A program made the position numbers and the translations under genes. The notes under the pieces are model-generated. The model saw nothing but the letters and a program-made list of their open reading frames with translations. It made no database searches and had not been told where the DNA came from. From an uncultured Planctomycetia bacterium (GTDB lineage Bacteria > Omnitrophota > Gorgyraeia > Tantalellales > Tantalellaceae), in the NCBI GenBank assembly GCA_964572255.1, contig CAZNEE010000002.1:121129-185128 (forward strand): a stretch of 64,000 bases of DNA. The letters are read 5' to 3'. This document shows, one piece after another, positions 1,455 to 58,533 of this stretch (position 1 is its first letter; every line of letters begins with the position of its first letter).

Positions 1455-1946
1455 TTAGCTGTAAAACGCAGAAATCAGATCCAGATGGCTTTGGAAAGGG
1501 ATTTCAGGCAGGTTTTCCTTGGAAAAATACGCGACTTCCGCTGCATCGTCCCCGGGGGCGGGATCGTCCTTATCGGTAATAAATTCAACCCCTATCACCA
1601 TGACATACTCATAAGTGCGGCTTTTCTGAAGATAGATGCCTAATAAACGGCCGGGCCGACCTTTAAGATTGGTCTCTTCCAACAATTCACGCTCTCCCGC
1701 CTCCTCGACAGTCTCGTCTATCTCGACAAATCCTCCGGGAAGCGACCAGTGGCCCTTGTATGGCTCGACACCTCTTTTAATGAGCAGAACTTCCCCATTT
1801 TTATTTGAAACAAGACATTGAATAACAGGGATCGGGTTGCGGTAATTTATCCAACCGCATTCGGGGCAGTTTAGGCGTTTTCTACCATCTATTTGATCCC
1901 ATTTAAGTTCGGAAGAACAAATAGGGCAAAATTTAAATTCTTGCAT
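1455..1946 (-). CDS. NUDIX hydrolase with N-terminal zinc ribbon (NudC-like)
   Basis: CPICSSEL...CPECGW zinc ribbon followed by Nudix box GGFVEIDETVEEAGERELLEETNL. Confidence 0.6.
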   Translation of the reverse strand: MQEFKFCPICSSELKWDQIDGRKRLNCPECGWINYRNPIPVIQCLVSNKNGEVLLIKRGVEPYKGHWSLPGGFVEIDETVEEAGERELLEETNLKGRPGRLLGIYLQKSRTYEYVMVIGVEFITDKDDPAPGDDAAEVAYFSKENLPEIPFQSHLDLISAFYS

Positions 1947-3610
1947 TATTGCTTCTTGAATATCGCTCCGGTTGCGGCAGAAGTTACTTGCTGGGCATAT
2001 CTATAAAGATATCCCTCTTTTATCTTGTAGTCAGGATGCTGCCACTTTTCGAGGCGTTTTTTTATTTCATCTTCGTCAACTAAAAGTTCCAGTTTTTTAT
2101 TAGGTATATCTATCCGGATCTTGTCCCCTTCTTTAACGATAGCTATGGGACCGCCTTCCTGAGCTTCAGGAGAGATGTGTCCGATCGCTGCACCGCGTGT
2201 GCCGCCCGAAAATCTCCCGTCAGTGATAAGAGCAACGTCTTTATCCAGACCTTCACCCACAATTGCTGAAGTAGGGCTTAACATCTCACGCATTCCCGGT
2301 CCGCCTTTAGGCCCTTCATAACGAACGACTACAACATCGCCCTTTTTTATCTTTTTCCCCAGAATAGCTTTCATGGCATCTTCTTCCGAATCGAACACCC
2401 TTGCGGGACCTTCATGAACGAGCATGCTTTCATCGACCGCGGCTTTTTTGACCACGGCGCCGTCCGGACAAAGATTACCGAAAAGTATGCTTAACCCTCC
2501 ATCCGGTGAATACGGAGAATCTATCGGATGAATAACTTCCGGATCCAGGTTCTTTACATTCTTTATGTTGTCTTTTACTTTCTCTCCGGTAACGGTCATA
2601 GCATCAGTATTTATCAGATTTTTCTTGCTTAGTTCCAATATCACGGCTGGAATACCGCCAGCTGCATCAAGATCCTCTATATGATAAGTCCCCGCCGGTG
2701 ATATGCGGCACAGGTTCGGCGTACGTTCACTTACCTTGTTAAAAAGCTCAAGATCGAGTTTTATGCCGGCCTCGTTGGCTATCGCGGGGAGATGGAGAAC
2801 AGTATTTGTGGAACTCCCGAGCGCCATTTCAACAGCTACCGCGTTCTCAAAAGCCTTTTCGGTGGCTATATCCCTGGGTTTTATGTCTTTTTTAACAAGT
2901 TCCACTATTCTCTTGCCCGCTTCCACGGCAAGAAACCGTCTTTTTTCGGAAACCGCCGGGTAAGTCCCGTTGCCGGGCAGGCCCAGGCCCAGGGCTTCGC
3001 TTAGGCAGTTCATGGAATTGGCGGTAAACATTCCCGCGCATGAACCGCACCCGGGGCAAGCTGTATTTTCCAGTTCTTTCAGTTCTTCCTCGGTTATTTT
3101 TCCGGATGAATGCGCACCGACGCCTTCAAAAACAGTAATAAGGTCGATCGCCTTGCCGTCTTTTTTACCCGCGAGCATGGGGCCGCCGCTAAAGAAAATA
3201 GCGGGGATATTGAGCCTCAGCATCGCCATCATCATGCCGGGAACGATCTTGTCGCAGCTGGCCATACATAGAAGGCCGTCAAACGCGTAAGCCATACCCA
3301 TGGATTCAACGGAATCGGCGACTATCTCCCTCGAAGGAAGAGAATATTTCATGCCTTTATGCCCCATGGCTATACCGTCGCATATCCCTATCGTATTGAA
3401 TTCCATGGGAGTGCCGCCCGCCTCCCTGATGCCTTCTTTAACGGCTTCAACCAGGCCTCTGAGATGAATATGTCCGGGGATGACTTCATTAAAAGAATTC
3501 GCGATCCCTACTATGGGACGCGACAGATCCTCATCCGTGTAACCCATCGCCTTAAAAAGTGAGCGATGAGGAGCCCTTTCAATGCCTTTTTTCATTTGGT
3601 CTGAACGCAT
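1946..3610 (-). CDS. ilvD: dihydroxy-acid dehydratase
   Basis: 554 aa; [11 protein letters not shown] and [16 protein letters not shown] motifs typical of IlvD/EDD family. Confidence 0.9.
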
Positions 3611-3624
3611 ATCCTTCTCCTTTT

Positions 3625-4593
3625 TTACTTATATGCAATCCCTTTTAATTCTTCCACATATTGCTGAGCTGAATAAGCGGCCGTTGCCCCGTCTCCGCAG
3701 GCCGTTACGACCTGGTGTAAAACTTTTTTCGTGCAGTCTCCGCACGCGAATATACCGTTCTTTGAAGTTTTCATCGCCTCATCGACTATGATATTGCCTT
3801 TTTCCCCAAGCTCGACTACTCCATCAACAAAATCCGTACTCGGATGCCATCCGGTAAAAATAAAAACCCCCTCGCACGTGATCTCTTTCTTTTCGGCTGT
3901 ATCCACATCTCTAATGATAACTCTATTAACTTTCTCGTCGCCCTCAATACTTCCCACAACGGATTTCCATACAAATTCTACTTTTTCATTAGCCGAAATT
4001 TGTTCCTGCAGTATTCTGGCCGCGCGCAGGCGATCTCTTCTATGAATAAGAGTTACCTTGCTCGCAAAACGCGTAAGATAAAGCGCTTCTTCAACTGCGG
4101 TATCTCCGCCCCCCACAACTACAATTTCTTTATCTTTGAAAAATGCAGCGTCACAAATTGCGCAATAGGAAATACCTTTTCCCAAAAATTCTTTCTCGCC
4201 GGGAACATTCAACTTCTTCGGCCTGGCTCCGCTGGCGACTATAACAGAAAGTGCTTTATATGTTTTGTCTTCAGTCTCTGTTTTGCAAAGCAGGCAATCG
4301 TTTTCTTTTTCTTGATCAATGGATCTCACTGTCCCTGTCGTGCATTCAAGACCAAAGTTCTGAGCCTGTTTTTTAAATATATTTACAAGTTCAAATCCCC
4401 CGACACTTTCGATCCCGGGATAATTCTCTATTTTTTCCGTCATTGTCGCCTGGCCTATAACAGAAAAACTCTCAATTAAAAGAGTTTTCATGCGGGCTCT
4501 GGATGCATAAATCCCCGCTGTTAGCCCTGCCGGACCGCCGCCGACAATTATTATGTCATATACTTCTTGAGGAATATTCAACTTCCTATGCAT
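3625..4593 (-). CDS. trxB: thioredoxin-disulfide reductase
   Basis: FAD motif [14 protein letters not shown], redox CAICDA, NADPH motif [14 protein letters not shown]-terminal GDCT. Confidence 0.85.
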
Positions 4594-4595
4594 TA

Positions 4596-5249
4596 TTATT
4601 CTCTTTCGCCAAATATCTTTGTTCCTATTCTAACAATATTCGCGCCTTCTTCAATAGCTATCTTATACGAATTTGTCATGCCCATGGAAAGATACTTCAT
4701 CTCAACATTCGGCATGTTCCCCTTTTTTATTTGATCGAATACTTTTTTTGTTTCGGTAAAGTACGGCCTTGCACCCTCGGGGTCTCCCGAAAATGGCCCC
4801 ATGGTCATGAGTCCGGCAACTTTTATATTCTTAAACGCGGATATTTCTTTCACGAGATCTGTCGCTTTTTCCGGAAAAACACCGAATTTCTGCTCTTCCC
4901 TCCCGCTATTAATTTCAACAAGAACCGGCATAACTTTATTTATCGCTTCGCATCTTTTATTGATCTCGTCCGCCAATTCTATTGAGTCCACCGTCTCTAT
5001 TAGATCGAAGACTTCAACAGCTTTTTTTACCTTCCTTCTCTGAAGATGCCCTATAAAATGCCACTTGACCTTCTTGCCGACCGCATTATATGCTTCAAGG
5101 GCTTCCTGCACATAATTTTCCCCGACAATTTTAATGCCCGCTTCAACGGCTTCTAAAACTTCATAAGGCGTTCTTGCTTTAGCCGCGGCAACAAGCTCTA
5201 CGCCTTGAGGAAGCTCGTCTAATATTCTCTTCACATTCTCTTTGATCAT
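4596..5249 (-). CDS. yggS: YggS family pyridoxal-phosphate homeostasis protein
   Basis: 217 aa; LVAAAKARTP...IVGENYVQE...HFIGHLQRRKVK...GMTNSY pattern of the YggS/PLPHP family. Confidence 0.8.
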   Translation of the reverse strand: MIKENVKRILDELPQGVELVAAAKARTPYEVLEAVEAGIKIVGENYVQEALEAYNAVGKKVKWHFIGHLQRRKVKKAVEVFDLIETVDSIELADEINKRCEAINKVMPVLVEINSGREEQKFGVFPEKATDLVKEISAFKNIKVAGLMTMGPFSGDPEGARPYFTETKKVFDQIKKGNMPNVEMKYLSMGMTNSYKIAIEEGANIVRIGTKIFGERE

Positions 5250-5315
5250 AAGTAAAAGTCATTATAAGGCGTAAGCATCTTTTAGGCAAGGTTCTTATGC
5301 GGAAAACAAGAAATA

Positions 5316-8300
5316 TTAAGCCGCTGCTCTGACTCCTAATTCCCTGTAAAATTCTTTCTTGAGGAGTTCTCTATCAATGGGCTCTGCTTTTGGCATGAAA
5401 GTAAATACCCTCGGGCTATCTTCATCAAACTCCAGCCCTATCTCGGGATAACTCTTCTTCAGTTCACTGATCAAGACTTCGAACGGTAAAACTTTATTAA
5501 AGGCAAGCTCTAAAGCCATGTTAATCATATCAACGATCCTTATGTAATTTTCTTCATTCCCATTCTCCGGCCGCTTATTGATCTGTTCAGGATCGATCCT
5601 CACCAAAAGCGCCCTGTCTCCCGTTTTAGGATCATGTAAAGGCTTGAACGCTTCTTCTTTTACTATATCCTCATGCCCTAAAACGATGATGTTCGAAAAG
5701 TTGACTTTTTTATTATCTGCTTCTTTCAGCAGCTGTCCGGCGAAATCATCCCCCTCTTTCCTGACAATATGGATATTTTTGATCCCGAGGCTTCCGGCGA
5801 TCCTGTATATCTCGCTTAAAAGCGGTTGTATTATATCGGCCTGTTCTTTTGGTATCCAGCTGGTCTCCAGCCCGATCATAATATTTTGTTCGTCATTTTT
5901 GACCCCCCCGCCAAGATCCCCATTTTTAACTTTATCGGCATAAAACCTGAGCATATCCATGAAAAGCATTGCCATCTCCTGAGCCCTGGTAAATTTGCCT
6001 TCTGTCCGCTTCCCTGCGGAAGGTTTATGTCTGATAAAATATAACGCGCTGTTATACACATGCTTGCTGTCCTTATAACTCGTTTCGACATCCATGATAT
6101 CGCCAGTGATCCCGCTCAATATTCTATATTTTCCGGCCGATCTGAGTATCTCGGCCACGGCGTCAATATCGCCCAGCTTTTCATCACGGGTTATGCACGG
6201 ATCATTCCATATCATCGCTATTCCATCATCATGGAGCATGACCGGCAATGCGCGGGCAAAGCGACTTAATGCGTCTCCCCCGATATCGCCGTCCCAATAG
6301 CTTGCAAGTTTTTTGTGCCAGGCGGGCACACTCTCTCCCGGCGAATCGATCAAGTTAGGCATGTTCCAGATGATCCTGTCGAAAACGCCGTCAAAAACAG
6401 GTTCTCCGTTTTCTGAAATTATATTATCATGGGTCACGGTCTCGATATCAAACCCGGCTATCTTAGCGGTCAGGCGAGTGTTTGCCGCTGCAAGCGGATT
6501 TATATCAACGGCATAGATCTTTCTGCCTGTTTTAAGATACGCTATCCAGCTGTCTATGCCCGAACCGGAACCCGCGATCAAGACCCTATGCCCCTTATCC
6601 AATCCTATATCATTCCACATAGCAGGGATTATCTTGGCATCAGAAACCGTCATTTCCGCCGGCGTATATACAGTGGGAAATACCGGGATAATGATCTTCT
6701 TTTTGCCTTCTTCTTCTTTAAAAATTCTTTCAAAATCCTGGTCGGATAATGTTTCCGGGGTAAAGGTCTGTATATCTATTTTTCCTGTCAGGGTATCAAC
6801 CCCGATATAATTATAGATATCTGTTTCCTGGCGGTTGAAATTTGAAATAAGCTGGCCTTGTCTTCTTCTCTCAGCGGCAAAAGAAAGCAGCAGCTTCTTG
6901 TCCGCATTCCTTCTTGTTATGAAATCTTTCCATTTCTGCGCGGCCTCAGGATCGGTCATATCGGGAAAAACAAAATTGTAAGGCGTAAGATCCAGATAAT
7001 AGATTTCATCCTGTGCGGGAGCGCCTTTGACAACAGGAAATATCCCTATTAAAAGACCCTGTTCATTATGTAAAAACTCGAATTCCCTTGTTTTCTCTCC
7101 GGCAAGTTCTCTATAAAGCACATCTAATCCGCGCGGAGTTCCGTACATCATAGATGTTTCGGGGATCCTTATCGTGCGAATGATGGTATTACTCCACCCT
7201 TGTCTTTCGGAAATTATACCGGCCTTATTGATCTCCAATGCCTGCAGGAACTCCCACGAAGCCATGTCTTTATAAAAAGCTGCGTCAGCCTCCTGCGCCT
7301 TGACCAATTTTGTTCCCGTTGCAACTGCTTCTTGTTTCTTGCCTGGAATGAAACGAACTTCAGATCTTATCTTTCCCTCGATATTGTCCAGTTCATCCAA
7401 AACATAATCACCAAAGATTTTTACTGCCTTTCCTTTTATGGGAACATCCGATACAACAAATGTACTGTCATCAAAAACTTTTATGAACTTATGAAAACGT
7501 TCTTTATTGTCAGTATCTTCGATATATACAGGAATTTTTTCCGCAGAATAAGCCTCTCCGACAACGGCTTCGAACGGTTTAAATCCCCTGTTTTTCCTTC
7601 TGAAATCAGGCCCTATATACTCATCTCCTTTCAGTTCAAAACCCAGATCTTCCACAACACTCACCAGGAAAGGATTCTGAACAAAAATGCCAAATTCTAT
7701 GTAGTAAGAACCGTTGTAAATAGCCCCCTGTTTCAGTCCGGACAACAGAACTTCCAGGAATGCCCGGGCGTACCCTCTATTCCTGTAAAGATTATCAACA
7801 AAAATACAATCGATTTCCGTGTCATTAAATCTGATATAACCAACAGGATCCCCATCCCCGCCGTAAAAATCCAGACTGCCATGATTCTCGGAAGACATGG
7901 GGAAATATTCGAAGAACAGTTTTTCATTATTGGGTGTAATAACATGCCCTGAGTAGCCTTCTTCTTCGAAAATGCTATTGCAGACTTCAGTTATTTCAAT
8001 AACCTCAGGATATTCCTCGGCAAAAGTCGCTGCTGTCAACCTTCTCTCTTTTAATGACCTCAAATAAGGCCCGACCATGATAGAACCAGTGTGATCGCCT
8101 TTCATCCAATAAGCGCCATCAATATAAGTAACAGGGGTATTATTCTCTAAAATAGCGACCCAATTATGCGTATAAGGCTTATCAAAGCCCCAATAATATC
8201 CTCCGACAACTTCCACTCGGCTGGGCGAATCCCCTCCCAATGGTAATCCATATTTCCTGGAAATGATCTCCGCCAGAGCTAAGGCGGAAATATAGCATTC

Positions 8301-11300
8301 TTTTACCGGGTATCCTTTTTTCACTTTTTGCCGCATAAGTTCCGTAAAACGATTTTCAATAGCTTTGAGATGCAAATACAAATTATCATCCGATGGCAGC
8401 ACTGAATGCGGATCTTGAACCTTGCCGTCACCGTAACCCGGAGGTCCGGGTTCGGATTTTAATTCGTTCTCTCCATCATACACCCTTATGCCCGAAGCCC
8501 AATCACTCTTATCGTACGGCCAAACTGTTACTTTCTTTCCTCCATGCCTAACTCCGATATAATATGGTTGCCCCATTAACGTTATGCTTCCATCTTTTCC
8601 GATCTTTCTTTCTGCAGGTATTGAGGGTTTTTTACGTACCACCTTTTTTCTCGGCTTTTTGACCATCTCATGCTTTTTACGTTTCTTTGTTCCTTTATTA
8701 TGGGAATTATAGCTCTCGATCAATCTTTCTACGGAATATTCTCCTGCAACTTCTTCCTCACTTTTTTCTTCCCCCTTCATCCTGTACCCAAGATGCGCGA
8801 CTTCATGGTTAAGCCATCTGGCATAAGAAACTAGATCATTTCTTCTGATCATTCCCAGAAATTCAAGAACTTTGCGCGGGATCAGCAGATTGCAGGAACG
8901 CGCAGCGCCATTTTCATCTCTCCAGGACCCGGGGTGAGTGATAAGTCTGAACGAACCTTTTTCCGGAAAAGAGATATTGCTTGTTTCTGCAAATTTATAA
9001 AGAACATCATAGAAATATTTCTCGGGGGGGCTATGTATATGGATCTCTTCTTCTATGCCCCTGCTTCTCATCTCGCTTAAGATATCTTGCCCTAATCCTT
9101 TTTCTGTTGAGATCTTATGATCTCTTTCAAATACATCCCAATAAACCCCCCATGTTTTATTGATAACGGCGTGCTGCTGGGCATTTAACACATACTGAAC
9201 CCATCTGCCGTCTTTTTTTACTAAAGCAATCGCGGGCGGATCATCGGAAGGAATGCCTTTTTTCTTATCCGATAACCTTGGCGATTCAGGCATTTTCCGT
9301 CCCCGGGAATAATTAAAACCTCTTCCATATCTGTCTCCGCTTCTTCTTTCTCCATCAATGTAAAACGTCAATTTCGGGCTGACTTCCTTGACTTTCACTG
9401 AGACAGCTTCACCTTCACTAAATCTTTTGCCTCCGCAAAGACTAAGGGGCATGAAACCTTTAACTTCTCCCTCATAAACAAGTTCATATCCCGCCAATGA
9501 ACCATCGCTCCTGCGGCGAGACTCTCTATTTACGAACACCTTAACTTCCTCTCCCGATCTCTCAGCTGCCTCCAATTCATACAATAGATCTCTTTTTCTT
9601 TCATTCGCCATCATCTGTCTTCGGCGAATAGAGAACCTGGGTTCGGGAATTATCCCCCTCCATTTACAATCGACGAGAACAACGTTCACTTTTCTGCCAA
9701 GCATATCATCAGGATTAGTTCCATAGGGGCATTCTCTCGAGCTAATGCGTCCTTTTATCTCCTTGAATTCAACCACGTAGTAGTCAAATTTGCCTCTATA
9801 ACTGTAATGATCTTCCACGATCTTGACCCTAAAAACTTTTTCAGGATCATCTTCCCCCTGCTTTATCTCTCTGATACCTAAATGATAATTAAAGACGGAT
9901 TTTGCTTTTTCGTCCAACTTGTCCAAAATAGCCTTTGATATTTTTTTATATTCATCTTCTTCTTTGCTGACCAAATAAGAAAACTCTGCGGGTTTTTCTA
10001 TTCTGCGCCTTGCATCAACAAACCTGTTCAAGTCCGCTTCTGCAATACAGTTTTCCGCTTTTCTTTTTGCTTTTGGCAAACCATGTTTTTTTAAATATAA
10101 AAAAGCCTCCAGGCTTGACAGCCTGCCTAAGCCGTCTATTTTCCCTTCAGCAGCCAACTTCATTCTTTCTTCGATCCTTTCATCTAAAAGGACTATTATC
10201 CTAATCTTTTCCCGGAAAAAAGCTTCCCTCTCTCCGAGCTTTAGGGCTTTCCATGCCCTATCGGAAAGTTTGAACTTATCACGTCTCCTGCTGTCGCTTT
10301 TCAGTAATTTACGTTCTTCCAAAAGGTCAATGACGTCTATAAGTTTGATCCGCTCATCATGAATCTTTTTCCTTACATGATCTCTCATTTCCCCTAAGAC
10401 ACGATCGGCTTCTTTCTTTGCATCTATTTCCGGCAATAATTCCGGGCGTTCATCCAAAACTTTATCGAGAAACACCGTAAAATGATCCGCCAGATCATCA
10501 TCACCCATGCTCCTAAGCTCTCCCAGGCGCCTGCGCATTTCATCAACCGCATAAGATGCTCTTTCAGGTTTCTCTTCACGTATAATCTCAAGGATATCAT
10601 TGAGCTCATCTCTCGTTCTTTCTCCCGAAGAATGAGTATCTTCACTTCCTTTATCCTTATCCGCGGGCTGGTCTGTGTGGGGCGTACCCGGGCCGAAACC
10701 GTCGGTCTTATCTTTATTGTACAAAACCTTAATGCTGAAATTTGGACTGCCCCCCTTTAAGGGGCCTGTCCTTCCGCTCAACATTATTTCTTTCACATCG
10801 GCGTTAAACTTTTCAGGAGCATCTCTCGGTATCCGCGGCTTGCCTCTTATTTCTATTAATACGTCTTCAACCGACTGAGCCACAACGCCGATTACCTTAT
10901 TCCCGATCTTAACGACCAGTTTTTCGTCTATTGTAATAACGGTGCCTTCCCTTAACTCTTTGACAAGCTCCAGTTCCTCTGTCCATTCATTACGTTCTAT
11001 CTTATATTTATTCTTTGTTCCTTCAACATGCTTTAAACGGAGATAAGCCAGCGGAAATACTGTTTCTATGTCTCTGATCTCGATCTCGCCCATCACATCA
11101 TAACTCCAGAAGCCTTCACCTGTCTTAGCGTCATTAATATCCTCGAAGCTTTGCCACTCCCGGCTTTTTTCGTAATTAAGAAGATCTCCGGAATAGAAAG
11201 TGACCTTTATTTCGTCAGCGAAATATTTTTTGAACACGTGTAGGTTATATAGCCAGGGTGTATCTATATAAATTTCATTGATCCCGTTTGTGACAGCAAA

Positions 11301-14300
11301 ATTTGAAAGCCAATAGAGAAAAGTCTGTGATATGCCTTTATTTTTATACTTATTATTATTTTCACGCCACGCTTCGGGTTCACTGATGGGAAAATATTCG
11401 TCTATCATCAAGCTGCCGCGTTCAATTCTCAATTCAAACTTCCCTATTTCATCTTTCCCTCTTTCGTCATAGATATTACCGTAAATAACATAACCTTCTT
11501 CATCCACAAACGGCGTAACAGTATACTTGATCTGTATATTCGGACCATTCTTGACATTCGGGGCATTACACCTATATGTTTCATCAAGTTCCATATCTTC
11601 ATGCGCCATCTGATCTATTCGCGGCGTACCCGGACCGAAACCATCCGCTGCGGTATTCAAAAACATATTCATGCCTATGTTCGTGCAGACAGCGACCCCC
11701 TTGACCATTGTCCTTAGCCGGTTGTCTATGTGGTTGATGTAAAGATGCGTGGGAGGTTCCTCTGATGTATCGCCCTCCTCATCCAGTAACCTGATCAATA
11801 CATAGTCAAAAGATCTGGCTGATACGACCATCCTGATCGGCCTGTCGCAATCGATAAGGAACTTCTTTATGTGCTGTATCTCTTTATCGATAACATCAAA
11901 ACCTTTTTTCGAAGAAAAATAGTCGTAGCAGATCGTTACGACCACTTCGCCGTTAAAATCTTTGATCTTTTCGATATTTTTCTTTCTTGCTATCGGATCG
12001 TTGCAGGCTTCATCTGAAGATATGTGGATATAATTCTTTGAAGTAAAGAATCCGTTTTCCTGCGCAAATCTCGCCCATCTGCCTTCGGGAACGATCTTTA
12101 GATCGGTTTGATCATCCTTGTGCAAGTCGAAATTCACACAAAGCGCATCTTTTATATCCATGAGATCCATCAGCGGCAAGATCGCATCATGGTCCTCTAC
12201 GATATAGTGGCTGAGTCCAAAAAATGAATCCTCTGAAGAAGGAACGAGCCCGATAAGCGGCCGCATTAAAGCATCGGCTTTGGATTTTCCGTAAAGCTCC
12301 CTTAAAACCTTATGTGTAGTTTTCAAGTCAGAACCGCAAACAGGATCGTTCAAAATATGCTTTACGATCTCCATCCGCACGGGAAGATCTCCCCATGAGA
12401 GGACTGAATCTACCTCTTCCGCCATAATACTGGTTCGGATCGAATCCGCCTTTTTCAGGACAGCTTTAACGCGCTCTGTTATCTCATTCGTGCGACCCGC
12501 CGACTGGTTTATTGGAGGCGTGCCTGGGCCATCATATTCACTCTGCCTTTTGAGTTTGCGATAGGTAAAAAGGGTATCCCTGTCCATGACATCTTCAAAG
12601 TCGGGTTCATTCGAAAAAATATCATACCCGCATTGAATGGCATCATCCCAAAGATCAAGCATCTCTTTCGCCTGGTCTTTTTCTCTTACAATTTCTAATC
12701 CATATTTACTTTTTCTTATAAATTCAGACGGTATCCCGCCGTATTGTTCTATCATCTTTTTAAAATTAGATATATCTTCAAGCGGATATCCGAGAATGAA
12801 CCCATGAAATTCATCTCTTCCGGGGACATCATCCATGTATTTTTTCAGAAGATCGACAAATAACTCTGTAGATTCTTTTTCATCCTTTTCTTCCTCGCTT
12901 ATCAATAATGCCAATTCACGGGATGTGATGATATTATTCTCTACTAAAAATCGGCCTTTTTTGCGCAATCTTTGTAAAACATCTTTCATATACATTATGT
13001 AAGGTCCGGCTATCCATATGCCCAACTTCTTAAATGTTTCATCCTGCATAACATCCATAGCTAAAGGTTCCACGGGCGGATCGCCTCTTTCGGAATAATA
13101 TATATAAGCGAACCTGACGCCGAGAAAAACGGCAAGAACTTCAGGATAAAGAAAGATCTTCTTGGATTCAGGTGAAAGTTCTTTATAAAGCTCTACTAGA
13201 TACTCTTTCCTTTTTTGGAATTCAGGATCAGACTCTATCTCCTGGAAGCTAACAATATCCCCTGGCTCATCATTATCCGCCGGCTGGTCTATGAAAGAAA
13301 GGATTATTGAGCCTAGAAAAATACCCGGCAAAATCCCGCTTATGCCCCTAACAGCAAAGAACTTATTCATACTTGCGAGAATCAGAGGCGTAACAGCGCT
13401 ACCAGTGACTATTTCGGTTATGATAAAAAGTCCGAAGATAAAAAATACTGCAGATGCAAGAATGGCTATAGAGCCTCTCTTCTTTTTTGCTCTTATATGT
13501 ACATAATCACGTCTTCTTCTTCCTTCAATCCTTGCCAGCCTATCGACATTAAATCCGGCATTTTCGAATATGTCTCTTGCCTCTTGATTTTTTGCTATTC
13601 TATTCCAAACTCTCCCAACTTCTTTCCTGACGATTTCATACGTTACGTTAACGTCTTCATCTTTTGTAATATCGCGCCAGGAACGTGCTTCAAAATGTCT
13701 TTTTATGAAAAACTTAATTTTTCTTTCTTTGTTTTTGTCCTTAAGAATTTCTTCTAAAATGCCTATGAGTTTTTCTTTGGTCTTATCGGAAAGGTCTATC
13801 CTCTCCTTATCTTCCTTAATTTCGGAGGTTTGTTCCATTGTGATCTCACCGCTTCTAAGACGGTCATCTCTATACAAGTTTACGATACTAAATCTTCTAC
13901 TAAATTCCTTTTTCAGTCTCTTGAAATGAAAACTGACTCTGGAGCGAATCATTATGCTTAGGAATGATTTAAAATGACTCAGTGTTCTCCTGTAAGCTGC
14001 TATACGCCTATAGAGGATATCAAAAAGCTCGTTATAAACACTTTCTTTGGCCTCCCTCACAATTTCTATTGTTTTCCCTTCAATATATCTTTTAGCGAAA
14101 TAAGGAATAATCCTCCCTTTCGCAAGAGAATACAGCACCCAAAAGCTTGCCAAATTTCCAGCTCGTGCATCTGCCGCTAAATTATCAATATCGCTGTTTT
14201 CTAATCTCTCATTTAAAAGACCCTCCATTGATCCTGGAAGACCTCCTGCTTTTCTGTAATTTGCCAATATTTCCTTGGTCTGGTTCCAATTTACATGTGA

Positions 14301-19095: not shown

Positions 19096-20264
19096 CATAT
19101 CCCGGCAATGCTGCCTGAACAAAAACCGCATTTGCCATCTTTAGAAACATGATTTTCCAGGACCTGGTATCCCATTCTTCTTATAACAACTTTTTTACAC
19201 TTCGGACAGATCGTATCTTCATACCCCATCCCGGGAACATTGCCGATATAAACATAATGAAGCCCCTCTTCAAGGGCGATGTCCCTCGCCTTCTTCAGCG
19301 TCTCAACAGGGGTGGGATAAAGAGATCTTAATTTGTATTGCGGCCAGAAGCGCGAAAAATGCAAGGGGACATCAGAGCCGACATTGGATCTTATCCATTT
19401 GACCATCTGCCTGATCTTGCTCATATCATCATTAAGAGTCGGAACTATTAAATTTGTCAGCTCGATCCACATACCGCCTTGTTTCATGGTGAGTATACTG
19501 TCTAAAATATTATTAAGACTCTGGGCGCATACTTCCCGCAAATATTTATCGTCGAAGCCTTTAAAGTCGATATTCGCAGACTCCACATATTTAGCAGCAA
19601 GTTTCGCGGGTTCTTTATTTATTTTTCCGCCTGTTACCATTACATTATATATACCTTTTGTTTTTGCGAGTTTCGCCCCCTCGATCATATACTCATAAAA
19701 GATAACAGGCTCAGTATAAGTATAAGCAATGGACCTGCATCCGTTCATTGCTGCGCTATCGACAAGATTTTTCACGCTTAAACGATTATTGATAGTCTCT
19801 TCAGGCGAGCGCTGCGATATTGTCCAGTTCTGGCAATATTTGCAGCGGGAATTACAGCCGGCAGTAGCTATGGAAAAAGACTTGCTGGCCGGGAGCACAT
19901 GATACATGGGCTTTTTCTCGATAGGATCAATATGCGCTGAGCAAACAAGTTCATATACAAGAGAGTATAACTTTCCGTCGACAGGTTCCCGAACGCGGCA
20001 AAACCCTCTCTGCCCGTTCGAAAGCGTACAATAATTGGGACACAGAACGCATCTTACCGCTTCATCCCCCATCTTTTCATAAAAAAGGGCTTCATGCATT
20101 CCGCGTTTTTCACCGATAGCGGATAAAGCCTGATATTTTGAAAGAGCGCCAAATGCGTAGAGCGATGCCCCTATACATACACCGGCTTTCGCGCATTTAG
20201 CCAAAAACTCGCGTCGGGTAACTTTCTTATGCCAGATGTTCTCAAGATGTTCAAATACTTTCAT
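19056..20264 (-). CDS. amrS: AmmeMemoRadiSam system radical SAM enzyme with twin-arginine (Tat) signal peptide
   Basis: CPNYCTLSNGQRGFCRVR and GCNSRCKYCQNW motifs typical of the AmrS family. N-terminus TRREFLAKCAKAGVCIGASLYAFGALS is a Tat-type signal. Confidence 0.8.
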   Translation of the reverse strand: MKVFEHLENIWHKKVTRREFLAKCAKAGVCIGASLYAFGALSKYQALSAIGEKRGMHEALFYEKMGDEAVRCVLCPNYCTLSNGQRGFCRVREPVDGKLYSLVYELVCSAHIDPIEKKPMYHVLPASKSFSIATAGCNSRCKYCQNWTISQRSPEETINNRLSVKNLVDSAAMNGCRSIAYTYTEPVIFYEYMIEGAKLAKTKGIYNVMVTGGKINKEPAKLAAKYVESANIDFKGFDDKYLREVCAQSLNNILDSILTMKQGGMWIELTNLIVPTLNDDMSKIRQMVKWIRSNVGSDVPLHFSRFWPQYKLRSLYPTPVETLKKARDIALEEGLHYVYIGNVPGMGYEDTICPKCKKVVIRRMGYQVLENHVSKDGKCGFCSGSIAGIWGTPHQGTPRKIE

Positions 20265-25881: not shown

Positions 25882-25904
25882 AGAAAAAAATATATCATGC
25901 TCAT

Positions 25905-26260
25905 CAAAGCAGATCTATAAGCCGGGTTCTGTAGGCGGAATTCACCGCCCGGCGATCATCCATCTGGGGCTTTCATTACTGAAAACCTCGTGCGGCCTAC
26001 CCGGAAGTTGTGACGAAGCTAGCCGCTTCGTTATCAGTCAATCCGCATGATTTTTCGGATTTTCCTGATTCCTCCCCTATTTGGCCTTGCTCCGCGTAGA
26101 GATTGCCGCGTTTCACTTCCGCATGCAAAAGCACGCTTACTCGTCTCTGTGGCTCTGATCCTCACCTTTTGGTGGACGGGCATTACCCGCTACGCTGCTA
26201 TATGGAGCCCGGACTTTCCTCCCCCTGCAAAAAGCAAAGAGCGATCACCCGATCTGCTTC
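25905..26260 (-). ncRNA. rnpB: RNase P RNA, bacterial type A
   Basis: The minus strand carries GGGGAGGAAAGUCCGGGCUCC (P4 5' strand), CGGAGCAAGGCCAAAUAGGGG and ACAGAACCCGGCUUAU (P4 3' strand). The P1 strands GAAGCAGAUC / GAUCUGCUU pair at the two ends. Confidence 0.85.
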
Positions 26261-27787: not shown

Positions 27788-27946
27788 AGCAGATTTTAAT
27801 CGTAAACTGTTCGCAAGAGCAGGACACAAAGCCAAAGGGGCTAAACAATGCTTTCAGCCAGCCGGCTGCCGATTGACACATCGTTAAAGTGTTGGCATAA
27901 GTATTGATCAGACCCAACCTTTCGATGGTTGGGTTTTTTGTTTTTT
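27788..27946 (+). promoter_or_regulatory. c-di-GMP-I (GEMM) riboswitch-like leader with intrinsic terminator, upstream of the first PEP-CTERM gene
   Basis: AAACUGUUC-GCAA-GAGCAGGACACAAAGCC...GGGGCUAAACAAUGC closely matches the Vibrio Vc2 aptamer (AAACCAUUC-GAAA-GAGUGGGACGCAAAGCC...GGCCUAAACCAUUGC). Followed by hairpin CCCAACC-UUUCGAU-GGUUGGG plus a U-tract. Confidence 0.7.
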
Positions 27947-52892: not shown

Positions 52893-53046
52893 AAAAAACA
52901 AAAACCCAACCATCGAAAGGTTGGGTTACTGATTTTCTCCAACACTTTAACGATGTGTTAATCGGCAGCCGGCTGGCTAATTTCTTTCCTAGCCCCTTTG
53001 GCTTTGTTGCCCCGTTCTTCCGAACGGTTTACGATTAAAATCTGTC
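52893..53046 (-). promoter_or_regulatory. c-di-GMP-I (GEMM) riboswitch-like leader with intrinsic terminator, copy 2
   Basis: Minus strand: AAACCGUUC-GGAA-GAACGGGGCAACAAAGCC...GGGGCUA..., then ACCCAACCUUUCGAUGGUUGGGUUUUUGUUUUUU. The P2 stem shows compensatory changes relative to copy 1. Confidence 0.7.
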
Positions 53047-55935: not shown

Positions 55936-56025
55936 AAGCTATGATTTTAGCACAATTGTATATACTCCACAAGCGCGTAAAAATACACGCAATTTTATAG
56001 AGAATTACAATATTTTTGCTGTTAA

Positions 56026-56103
56026 GTGTGCGGCATGTTTCCGTACAGGGAGGATCCACACTGGGCGGAGGGGCCCTGGTAGGAAATATGCCGCACACTT
56101 TAA
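56026..56103. repeat. 19-bp inverted repeat (AAGTGTGCGGCATGTTTCC ... GGAAATATGCCGCACACTT) with a 40-nt GC-rich loop
   Basis: Read from the sequence; lies in the divergent uvrA / XRE-cupin promoter region. Confidence 0.5.
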
Positions 56104-56206
56104 AATACGTATTACTATAGTAACTGTATATATAAATTTGATTATTTATCAAATTTGGTGTATATTGATGACTAAGGGATTCAAGCCGCATGCAAAGGGA
56201 GGAACG

Positions 56207-56758
56207 ATGAAAATAGGAAAAAGCATACGAAGATTGCGGAAAGAAAAGAATATCACGCTTGAAGAGCTGTCCAGTAAAAGCGGCGTTGCGTTGGCCACAT
56301 TAAGCCGCATGGAAAATGATAAAATGACCGGCACACTTGATTCTCACGAAAGAATATGCAAGGCCCTGGGAGCATCCCTTGCCGATCTGTACCGTGAAGT
56401 CGAAGATGAATCAAAAACCGTGGAAACCGTCCCGAAACATAAAAGAACGGAGCACTTTGTCCACGCGAATAAAGCGGTGTATGAACTTCTTGTAAGCAAG
56501 ACGTTCGGTAAGAAGATCATGCCTCTTATGATAAAGATCGAACCCGACGGGCACACTCAAAAAGAGAAGAATAAACCCGGTGTTGAAAAATTTGTATATA
56601 TGCTGAAAGGGGCGATTGACGTGCATGTGGGAGATGAGACCTACACTCTTAAACAAGGGGACAGCCTGTATTTTGACGCGTCGCTTGATCATTTTCTGAA
56701 AAACAGATCAAAGCAAGAGGCTGAGGCTATATGCATAGTCTCCCCTCCCGCGCTTTAA
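56207..56758 (+). CDS. XRE-family HTH transcriptional regulator with C-terminal cupin domain
   Basis: AAGGGAGG RBS then ATG at 56207. [34 protein letters not shown] and a cupin C-terminus. Confidence 0.75.
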
Positions 56759-56773
56759 ATCAAGAGGTGTAAT

Positions 56774-57127
56774 ATGGAAAAGAAAAGGCTTTTGATCTGT
56801 GACGATGAGATCGGGATAAGAGAATCCCTTAAACTTATACTCGAAAGTGATTACGATCTGGACTTCGCGTCAAACGGGGATGAAGTTATGGAAAAAATAA
56901 AGAACAGCCGGTTCGACGGCATTCTTCTTGACGTAAAAATGCCGGAAAAAGACGGGCTGGAAACACTTCAGGAAATAAAACAGTTTTCACCGGAGATGAA
57001 GATCATTGTTGTCACCGGATACAAAACGGTTGAAGCGGCCTCGAAAGCGATAAAACTCGGCGCGATGGATTATATTACTAAACCATTTGCCGAAAAAGAG
57101 GTAAGAGAAAAAGTCTCAAAGATATAG
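56774..57127 (+). CDS. stand-alone response regulator receiver (CheY-like)
   Basis: LLICDDE...ILLDVKMPEKDGLE...IIVVTGY...K REC motifs. Confidence 0.8.
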   Translation: MEKKRLLICDDEIGIRESLKLILESDYDLDFASNGDEVMEKIKNSRFDGILLDVKMPEKDGLETLQEIKQFSPEMKIIVVTGYKTVEAASKAIKLGAMDYITKPFAEKEVREKVSKI

Positions 57128-57174
57128 ATATCCACCCTCCGGCATATTTCATGTTCCGATACCGGTAAGCTGAA

Positions 57175-58533
57175 TTATTCCTCTATTTTGCTGTTCAGAT
57201 TGAATCTTCCTTTACGGTAGGCCAGAAGAAAAGCGCTCACGACTATGGGGTCAAATTGCGTGCCCGCGGCATCCTTTATTATCTGGACAGCGACCTCGGA
57301 CATGCTCCTCTGCCTGTACGGCCTGTCGCTGGTTATCGCGTCAAACGTATCCGCCACGGCTATTATCCGGGCTATGAACGGTATATCTTCACTCTTCAGC
57401 CCGTCCGGATATCCGGTCCCGTCATACCTTTCATGATGCGCGCGTATCTCATCAGCTATGTTCCCGAGCTCCCTTATGGAATAAAGGATAGAAGAGCCCG
57501 TTGAAGGATGCTCCTTGACCCTCTCGTATTCTTCTTTTGTCAGCTGACCGTTCTTGTTCAGGATGCTGTCGGGAACGCCGACCTTGCCTACATCATGAAG
57601 AAGAGCCGATAAATGCAGTGTTTCTATGAAATTCTTATATTCGTTAGCCTCAGGGAGGTCTTTCAGTTCATTTGCCAGTACCAGCGAGTACTGGGTAACC
57701 CTCTCAGTATGTCCGTGCGTGTAAGGATCCCTTGAATCTATCGCGGCGGCAAGAGAGATCGAGGTCCTGATGAACACGTCATGTTCCTTCTCATAAAGGT
57801 TGTGTATCTCGTATATCTTGTCCTCGAGGTCCTGAATGAGCTGGGTGTTGGCAAGCGCCATGGCGGCGTCATTGGCCAGGGTCGTGAAAAAGCCTATCTC
57901 CTGCCTCGAATAAGTTTCTCCCGAAAGTTTTCTGCCGAGAAGGAATATTCCGCTCAGATCTTTCCCGCAATATACAGGCACGCATATATTCGCCTTCAAC
58001 AGCTCCATCTGCCTGAGCGCCCTTTTTACAAGCTCGGCGAGCGCGGGGCTCTTTACGATATGCTCGTTCTTGTCAAAAGAATCGATAAGTTTATCATAAT
58101 CAACAGCCTGGGTAAAAGATACCTTATAGTTAATGCTTTCGTTAAAAAAACGTATCAAGGGGTCCTTCAACGTAAGTTTTATAAAACCGACGGGTATCTT
58201 GATGCCTTCCGCGCCGACACTGTCAATAAGGGTAAAAGTATCTCCCGATTTGTTCCTTAAAAGCATTGCCGTATGAGTTACCTGGACCTGCTCGTCAATG
58301 CTCTTAGTGATCATCCTGATGAGCTTTTCGGGTTTTTTAATGCGCAGCATCCCGCGCGAAACGTTCTCGAGCACGACCTGGTAGTCACGTTCGGGCTTCG
58401 GCCTCTGGAGGACCTCATGGCTTTCTATAGCCGGGGGGACATCCTCCGAATGCCTGATCTTCTCTGCTATCCAGTCCTGCAATTTAAGCCAGTTAGTATT
58501 CTCTTCGGGCATTTTCTCTTCCGATCGCTTCAA
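57175..58533 (-). CDS. HD-GYP domain c-di-GMP phosphodiesterase with N-terminal GAF-like domain
   Basis: HGHTERV...LHDVGK...HHERYDGTGYP (HD and GYP signatures). Confidence 0.85.
   Translation of the reverse strand: MKRSEEKMPEENTNWLKLQDWIAEKIRHSEDVPPAIESHEVLQRPKPERDYQVVLENVSRGMLRIKKPEKLIRMITKSIDEQVQVTHTAMLLRNKSGDTFTLIDSVGAEGIKIPVGFIKLTLKDPLIRFFNESINYKVSFTQAVDYDKLIDSFDKNEHIVKSPALAELVKRALRQMELLKANICVPVYCGKDLSGIFLLGRKLSGETYSRQEIGFFTTLANDAAMALANTQLIQDLEDKIYEIHNLYEKEHDVFIRTSISLAAAIDSRDPYTHGHTERVTQYSLVLANELKDLPEANEYKNFIETLHLSALLHDVGKVGVPDSILNKNGQLTKEEYERVKEHPSTGSSILYSIRELGNIADEIRAHHERYDGTGYPDGLKSEDIPFIARIIAVADTFDAITSDRPYRQRSMSEVAVQIIKDAAGTQFDPIVVSAFLLAYRKGRFNLNSKIEE

Follow-up and report, generated by a model that had tools for sequence, protein, structure and literature searches.

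The giant genes of the Omnitrophota, the longest of which exceed 100,000 codons, pose an open puzzle. The locus described here raises one part of it, namely why a single giant protein should carry the same short peptide at the borders between unrelated modules. The window that we analyzed is a stretch of 64,000 nucleotides from contig CAZNEE010000002.1 (assembly GCA_964572255.1), and its minus strand contains an open reading frame (ORF) of 3,767 codons, hereafter called the giant. Within this protein, the consensus D-G-(F-G)-P-G-T-P-x-[I/T]-[D/N]-Q occurs in three copies, starting at residues 1362, 1659 and 1973. These three DG(FG)PGTP elements are best explained as a junction motif, specific to its lineage, in a modular giant membrane protein of the multi-enzyme kind, which is probably from an Omnitrophota-type bacterium. 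Residues are numbered from an upstream TTG at 16619 (aa 1), which gives a genuine ORF at 5316..16619 (-); gene callers place the start at M12 (Table 1).

A short peptide repeated at three sites

The initial annotation had counted four copies of a near-identical linker, and the sites are numbered 1–4 here in the order of its list. Sites 2, 3 and 4 are genuine copies, spaced by 297 and 314 aa. The presumed first copy has no DG..PGTP segment, and its overlap with site 4 is limited to DQPAD; the 12 nucleotides assigned to it, 13285-13296, encode F-I-D-(Q) only, and the string DQPADNDEPGD is located at 13257-13289. Site 1 lies in a segment with a predicted local distance difference test score (pLDDT) below 50 in the model of the adjoining module, and it may represent a membrane exit or the N-terminal lead of that module. 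The observation is thus partly confirmed, as a real signal that had been slightly over-counted.

DGFGPGTP occurs exactly twice and GPGTP three times in the giant, accounting for its only repeated 6-mers to 8-mers, and for GPGTP the count was 0 in 300 shuffles of the protein. Repeated 5-mers as a class are roughly at chance, with 14 observed vs ~7 in shuffles. At the nucleotide level, a degenerate DNA pattern for DGFGPGTP yields 2 matches in the window vs 0 in 100 shuffles, and the motif is absent elsewhere in the 64 kb in all frames and ORFs. The peptide at site 4 opens a stretch of 42 residues in which hydrophobic residues number at most three.

When the linkers and their flanks are compared, the core is the same at the three sites and the flanks are non-paralogous. 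The synonymous third positions vary among the copies (GAT/GAC, GGT/GGC, CCG/CCA/CCC/CCT), and the core shows no replacements. Since synonymous codons differ in this way, selection acts at the peptide level, and the motif is conserved as a peptide, not as a DNA or RNA element, which speaks against a recent duplication, joints left by recombination or signals for internal initiation. The nucleotide core GGTACGCC, which had been proposed for all sites, is found in two of them; site 2 has GGCACGCC instead, site 1 has none, and two further, unrelated matches to GGTACGCC are present in the window.

The modules between the junctions

The segments separated by the motif, designated modules A, B and C, are autonomous units. 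In an exhaustive HMMER search with aa 1095-2010 as the query against 1.84 billion representatives, 42 proteins including the query's own were matched, and each of the 41 homologues covers only one of the three modules, with homology edges that coincide with the motif sites. The homologues are either stand-alone proteins of 111-317 aa, encoded by ordinary separate genes in ordinary chromosomal contexts, or single modules within giants of 1,167-6,361 aa, among which the modules are extensively shuffled. Module A is the most widespread of them among the related giants, and it is also found as stand-alone proteins. For module C, the alignment pairs Met1 of P0004, a stand-alone homologue, with the Met directly after the PGTPRIDQ of site 3. 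Other stand-alone proteins begin only a few residues away from the P0004 start and end before site 4. The strain variant P0044, with only 2 differing residues, is uninformative.

Other searches added little to this picture. A word-index homologue search with aa 1095-2010 gave no matches and a module A profile gave only 2, this index being too insensitive for modules of ~30% identity; a scan of genome contigs returned one unrelated pentapeptide-repeat match from a cyanobacterium. The giant has no full-length relative below 50% identity clustering, and therefore the exact motif is found in no homologue.

Structure models built by AlphaFold2 with the homologue alignments place the motif outside the folded parts. 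Module A was modeled with a pLDDT of 83.6 and a predicted template modeling score (pTM) of 0.80, and module C with a pLDDT of 82.9 and a pTM of 0.80. The last helix of module A stops where the DGPGTP of site 2 starts, a point beyond which the confidence drops sharply; for module C, model residues 1-21 (site 3) and 314-333 (site 4) are below 50. Since the module models are confident and the sites are below 50, the motif is predicted to be an exposed linker element between autonomous domains. Module C has the GNAT core fold, and no known fold relative was found for module A.

The ORF therefore holds several autonomous modules, in that A, B and C have separate homologues and A and C have confident independent folds. 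The claim in the initial annotation that the flanking modules are mutually unrelated holds, because self-BLAST of the giant is empty, without any internal repeats, and each module has its own set of homologues. Its further claim that the linker is conserved independently of its neighbors is borne out as well, by a peptide-level repeat that stands between unrelated modules in disordered linkers.

Junction motifs of related giants

DGFGPGTP itself is absent from all other homologous giants, many of which instead carry their own repeated motifs at homologous borders. The motif [AG][KA]SLG(E) is present in 11 and 8 copies in P0006 and P0008, respectively, and [AG][AS]SLG in 5 and 8 copies in P0018 and P0038. 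RSE[LV]R occurs in 4-11 copies each in P0020, P0024, P0035, P0036 and P0042, [KR]R[RK]SP[SA]G in 12 copies in P0029, DNGG in 6 copies in each of P0013 and P0034, and PEYPQSP in 2 copies in P0012. For the motifs tested as regular expressions, namely all of these except PEYPQSP, the shuffle expectation is at most 0.2 per protein. Apart from PEYPQSP, the junction motifs number 3-12 per protein and have a median spacing of 288 aa. Together with the three copies in our giant, these analogues constitute short peptide motifs at module junctions in accessible linkers.

The positions of these motifs are equivalent across the giants. The conserved helix that ends module A ('..PDFEE.M.P..L..F..') is followed, at the same position in each case, by GKSLGE, GASLG, ASSLG, RSELR, IDNGG, PEYPQSP or DGPGTP, depending on the giant. 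A homology-block test on 14 giants, with 295 blocks and 1000 circular permutations, generalizes this coincidence: blocks spanning a motif number 28 vs 124 expected, block starts adjoining a motif 179 vs 42 expected, and block ends 130 vs 29, and none of the 1000 permutations was as extreme in the first count or reached the observed values in the other two. In P0006, P0008 and P0034, every Pfam domain is contained in a single interval between motifs; across the related giants, such domains include HATPase_c, methyltransferase, GNAT, response regulator and GDE_C.

The giants P0006 and P0008 are encoded side by side on one contig by different genes. GKSLG is used in both, with 19 copies together, and is found in none of the other ORFs of that 29 kb locus. 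Because two different neighboring giants share it, the motif belongs to the genome and not to a single protein. The codons of the GKSLG giants are also free, with AGY or TCG for Ser and TTG, CTT, TTA or CTC for Leu. Own motifs at homologous borders form the pattern of a recognition or cleavage site, which is hard to reconcile with a mere flexible hinge, and the cleavage-site reading thus gains considerable indirect support from the relatives and is plausible.

Beyond the homologous proteins, a metagenome scan for the DGFGPGTP codon pattern gave at least 119 matches, and no second DGFGPGTP giant is among the matches listed. Those of the listed matches that lie in long ORFs belong to unrelated proteins, such as a small-virus capsid (L009) and a beta-propeller (L055), and the remaining ones are mostly in short ORFs on high-GC contigs.

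Several features of the related giants were observed along the way. Motif repetition is far more pronounced in them (loci L004, L006, L007 and L127) than in the protein of the window. Locus L006 (jgi 3300009008 Ga0115649_1001107, 1779-19231) holds two head-to-tail giants of 2,740 and 3,076 aa with overlapping stop and start, which have their first ~80 and last ~220 residues in common and use the same GKSLG junction motif; the pair may act as a single unit, or it may have arisen by a recent duplication in which modules were replaced. Residues 1868-2240 of P0015 consist of ~93-aa tandem repeats containing AKTLGEKVRILRHAR, which resembles the SLG junction motifs but was left out of the count as part of a true tandem domain repeat. 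Seven giants (P0019, P0020, P0035, P0036, P0038, P0040 and P0042) share an N-terminal 'head' domain from residue 1 to ~500, after the signal or anchor, with the invariant columns Q..H, EG and GGFH. This head, absent from the window protein and unrelated to its N-terminus, could be a metallo-enzyme. A tentative assignment to Tiki/TraB-like proteins was dropped, its only support being a faint ChaN/Tiki match in Pfam with E = 0.045 and a PDB profile search giving nothing relevant.

What the junctions may be for

With somewhat less than an even chance in our judgment, the junction motifs may be recognition sites of one factor that co-evolves with them; a processing endopeptidase, which would divide the giant into individual enzymes, is the most plausible candidate. 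A single sequence-specific factor would recognize the junctions, and the endopeptidase would then cut the translated giant into enzymes of ~250-300 aa, such that one gene of a bacterial polyprotein would take the role of an operon. In the giant of the window, only the block of aa 1362-1984 would be processed, releasing modules B and C and separating module A from both, and a candidate protease could be encoded elsewhere in the genome. The broader proposal, a lineage-specific 'cleavage code' that would make the giants genuine bacterial polyproteins, is a possibility that we regard with some doubt. Each lineage would then have its own junction peptide of 5-8 residues and a co-evolving protease, and GKSLGE, RSELR, DNGG, RRSPSG, PEYPQSP and DG(FG)PGTP would each be the peptide of one lineage.

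A number of points weigh against processing. The initial annotation had placed two putative peptidase domains downstream in the same polypeptide, one of HExxH and one of Cys type; this part of its polyprotein-like layout is unsupported, and the location of the motif at the borders of independent modules stands. Searches with Pfam, NCBIfam, PHROGs, PADLOC and PDB sequences, which covered 64 kb of the 498 kb contig, found no peptidase in the giant, and no peptidase domain is detectable in six related giants. The HEVAH sequence has no support as a peptidase from family, homologue or structure, and a single HExxH in 3,767 residues is near chance, with ~0.1-0.2 expected by our own estimate. The Cys region has no family match, and no homologues of it were found in the word-index homologue search. 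Module A is also unlikely to be the cutting enzyme, judging from its alignment, because only Pro, Gly and Tyr occupy its invariant columns. With only three copies, and with ~1,780 residues downstream and ~1,050 upstream that hold several domains and no such motif, most of the giant would stay uncut. SLG, ELR, NGG, SPSG and PGTP are so divergent that one protease family would need a very plastic specificity, and no second protein with DGFGPGTP was found among the HMMER homologues or the listed metagenome matches. Finally, the regular expressions were derived from the same sequences in which the motifs were later counted; in ten giants, nevertheless, an unsupervised count of fuzzy 5-mers also ranked these motifs first.

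The absence of a detectable protease would be expected if the giant stays intact and the motif is a non-cleaved short linear motif, serving either as a defined hinge that sets the spacing of the modules or as the place where a chaperone, a scaffold partner or part of a secretion or export system docks or recognizes the protein. The disordered location, the conservation at the peptide level and the genome-specific motifs at module borders fit this explanation equally well, and an N-terminal anchor with at least two internal transmembrane (TM) helices would suit a tethered multi-enzyme array. However, a pure hinge needs no specific set of 5-8 residues kept over 10-19 junctions and different genes of one genome, and no candidate partner is known for docking. 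The stand-alone homologues, moreover, begin and end at the junctions, implying that the modules work as separate proteins. Docking or a hinge, the most serious rival to processing, is in our judgment somewhat less likely than processing. It is improbable that the motif is a site of post-translational modification, for example by phosphorylation of the Thr in G-T-P, that regulates the modules, and there is a similarly small chance that the Ser of RSELR, KSLG and RRSPSG is the equivalent site in other lineages. Most motifs do hold Ser or Thr in an exposed, disordered context, and a kinase-like pattern in the N-terminal part was picked out by eye as a candidate. Yet the DNGG motifs of P0013 and P0034 have no Ser, Thr or Tyr, aa 12-380 give no match to a kinase family, and modification would leave the strict coincidence of the sites with module borders unexplained.

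An origin at the nucleic-acid level or in the history of the gene seems very improbable, whether the copies are taken as duplication or recombination joints, as cassette shuffling sites, as internal starts or as chance Pro/Gly-rich similarity. The extensive shuffling described above is in line with such an origin, as is an in-frame ATG after site 3, but sites 2 and 4 lack an ATG, the flanking modules are not paralogous as duplication would require, and the repeat was never reproduced by shuffles. The codon comparison has already largely refuted this explanation: third positions are free among the copies and Ser switches between AGY and TCN in other lineages, so that no DNA or RNA sequence is conserved.

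Recognition of the junctions by a co-evolving factor, most plausibly an endopeptidase, is thus the explanation that we prefer, and it has practical consequences. Lineage motifs that are selected as peptides and located on module borders would make the processing question testable, since the ends of the mature fragments are predicted. With them, giant ORFs can be divided in silico into units able to fold, and the protease or binding partner involved can be sought through co-variation of motif and enzyme. Should cleavage be confirmed, polyprotein expression would be in wide use by a cellular lineage rather than by viruses. If the cleavage code is true, giant ORFs would be operon-equivalents cut into dozens of enzymes of ~250-300 aa, and the motifs would give the first predictive map of their mature products. 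Even if cleavage is refuted, the motifs would remain a new class of conserved inter-domain linear motif.

Relation to known systems

The giant multi-enzyme proteins of Omnitrophota have been described in two preprints (West-Roberts et al. 2023, 10.1101/2023.11.21.568195; 2026, 10.64898/2026.06.07.730766), and both suspect that these proteins are processed into smaller products; cleavage into several products has been proposed for them. The 2023 preprint (10.1101/2023.11.21.568195) states that the cleavage points are unknown. In the 2026 preprint (10.64898/2026.06.07.730766), the terms 'linker', 'cleav' and 'junction' occur 0 times each, and junction motifs appear in neither preprint. The giants considered here resemble these proteins in their repertoire of GNAT, SAM methyltransferase, HATPase_c and response regulator domains, as well as in their membrane anchors, the large share of sequence without a Pfam match and their extreme mosaicism. 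Among the homologous giants, P0029 and P0013 carry the NCBI label Candidatus Omnitrophota. In contrast, the giant of the window has 3,756 aa, compared with at least 10,000 aa in the 2026 preprint or more than 30,000 aa in that of 2023, and the C39 and subtilisin domains named for Omnitrophota giants were not found in it. The most fitting place for it is among the multi-enzyme giants of the Omnitrophota, as a small relative.

The closest parallels in organization come from outside this group. Viral polyproteins of picorna-, poty-, flavi- and nidoviruses combine unrelated modules in one ORF, with short lineage-specific motifs at exposed junctions that differ between lineages while the modules stay homologous. 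The same three properties are seen in the giants: unrelated modules, exposed lineage-specific junction peptides, and homologous modules bearing differing motifs. To our knowledge, however, viral polyproteins always carry their cognate protease (3C, NS3, PLpro etc.), whereas no protease is detectable here and the gene resides on a cellular chromosome near rpoD, dnaG, uvrA and ilvD.

Among bacterial proteins, MARTX toxins carry arrays of effector modules, which are set free when the linkers between them are cut. Their defining features are RTX/GD-rich repeats and a cysteine protease domain (CPD) that is activated by inositol hexakisphosphate and cuts after Leu. The giant is likewise a large bacterial protein with an array of unrelated modules. 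Unlike the toxins, it contains neither RTX/GD-rich repeats nor a CPD by Pfam and NCBIfam, and its linker consensus extends over 8-12 residues as opposed to a single Leu. In the gingipain/HagA polyproteins of Porphyromonas gingivalis, precursors are cut at Arg/Lys between catalytic and adhesin modules; their modules are homologous adhesin domains in repeated copies, and the system includes its own protease. These are also bacterial multi-domain proteins, but the modules of the giant are unrelated to one another, and no sequence relationship to the gingipain/HagA proteins was detected.

Polyvalent proteins of phages and conjugative elements combine up to 15 disparate enzymatic domains per polypeptide (Iyer et al. 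2017, PMC5512222), and these authors propose that the domains are released by embedded peptidases, in analogy to RNA-virus polyproteins. They occur in phage and plasmid contexts, typically with a zincin-like metallopeptidase (MPTase) (PMC5512222); conserved junction motifs are not described in that study, in which 'linker' occurs 0 times. The giant is not a polyvalent protein because it lies in a core chromosomal context, away from mobile elements, and no MPTase was found in it, the lone HEVAH at aa 2605 being without a family match. In the literature searched, we found no description of junction motifs in bacterial polyproteins.

Organization of the giant protein and its surroundings

The features of the giant and of the window are collected in Table 1. 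The TM block at aa 1049-1110 divides the N-terminal third from the module array. Apart from the pentapeptide repeats, aa 36-1045 (window ~13500-16500, minus strand) match no family, and a search of the giant against PHROGs gave a match to the pentapeptide part only. In the same region, a kinase-like 'HxxDxxxxN...IDW' pattern and a sigma/helix-turn-helix-like stretch were seen by eye. Further downstream, a weak GNAT signal is located at ~aa 2908-2965.

Table 1. Features of the giant protein and of the 64,000-nucleotide window (aa 1 is the TTG at 16619)
Feature	Window position	Strand	Residues (aa)	Remarks
Giant gene	5316..16586	-	from M12	3,756 aa; start chosen by gene callers
N-terminal hydrophobic segment	16515..16571	-	17-35	signal peptide or membrane anchor, from hydropathy
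Pentapeptide-repeat domain	15105..15482	-	~380-505	sole Pfam domain above threshold in the giant
Hydrophobic block	13290..13475	-	1049-1110	two clear TM-like helices, a weaker third possibly between
Site 1	13275..13292	-	1110-1115	IDQPAD; adjoins the last TM helix; no copy of DG..PGTP
Module A	12537..13262	-	~1120-1361	mostly helical, confident model
Site 2 (copy 1)	12507..12536	-	1362-1371	DGPGTPPINQ; directly after the last helix of module A, opens a disordered stretch
Module B	11649..12500	-	~1374-1657	homologues in three other giants and stand-alone proteins of 111-181 aa
Site 3 (copy 2)	11610..11645	-	1659-1670	DGFGPGTPRIDQ; model pLDDT < 50
Module C	10710..11585	-	~1679-1970	GNAT-fold core and beta-rich C-terminal part; stand-alone homologues of 244-297 aa
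Site 4 (copy 3)	10668..10703	-	1973-1984	DGFGPGTPHTDQ, then PAD; model pLDDT < 50
HEVAH	8793..8807	-	2605-2609	'HExxH peptidase' of the initial annotation
Cys...His...Asp-like stretch	8100..8303	-	2773-2840	'Cys peptidase' of the initial annotation
Class I SAM-methyltransferase-like domain	6201..6698	-	3308-3473	E = 2e-11, below NCBIfam cut-offs
Gene directly upstream of the giant	16713-18989	-		758 aa, spermidine-synthase-like domain; adjoins a radical SAM protein and FeoB
RNase P RNA	25902-26260	-		
c-di-GMP-I riboswitch	27791-27873	+		
c-di-GMP-I riboswitch	52961-53043	-		

The giant gene is flanked by YggS, TrxR and IlvD on one side and by the spermidine-synthase-like gene on the other, a setting typical of a core bacterial chromosome, and a metagenomic contig of 498 kb carries the same giant gene with the same neighbors. 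Protein genes of the window include ilvD, 3-dehydroquinate synthase (aroB), thioredoxin reductase (trxB), YggS, FeoB, RpoD, DnaG, UvrA, FtsK and MiaB-like enzymes, and its RNA features comprise RNase P RNA, three tRNAs and two c-di-GMP riboswitches. The idea that the giant might be a phage virion protein, which had arisen from the gene order on a single strand, was rejected because these neighbors are core chromosomal, housekeeping genes.

The minus strand of the window (1-64000) carries nearly all of the long ORFs as well as the tRNAs and the RNase P RNA, and the GC skew is below 0 in 31 of the 32 2-kb windows, being slightly positive at 56001-58000. This gene placement and skew suggest that the window is part of one replichore with a very strong gene-strand bias. 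Several proteins with PilZ domains are encoded on the contig beyond the window (L002), in addition to the two riboswitches listed in Table 1.

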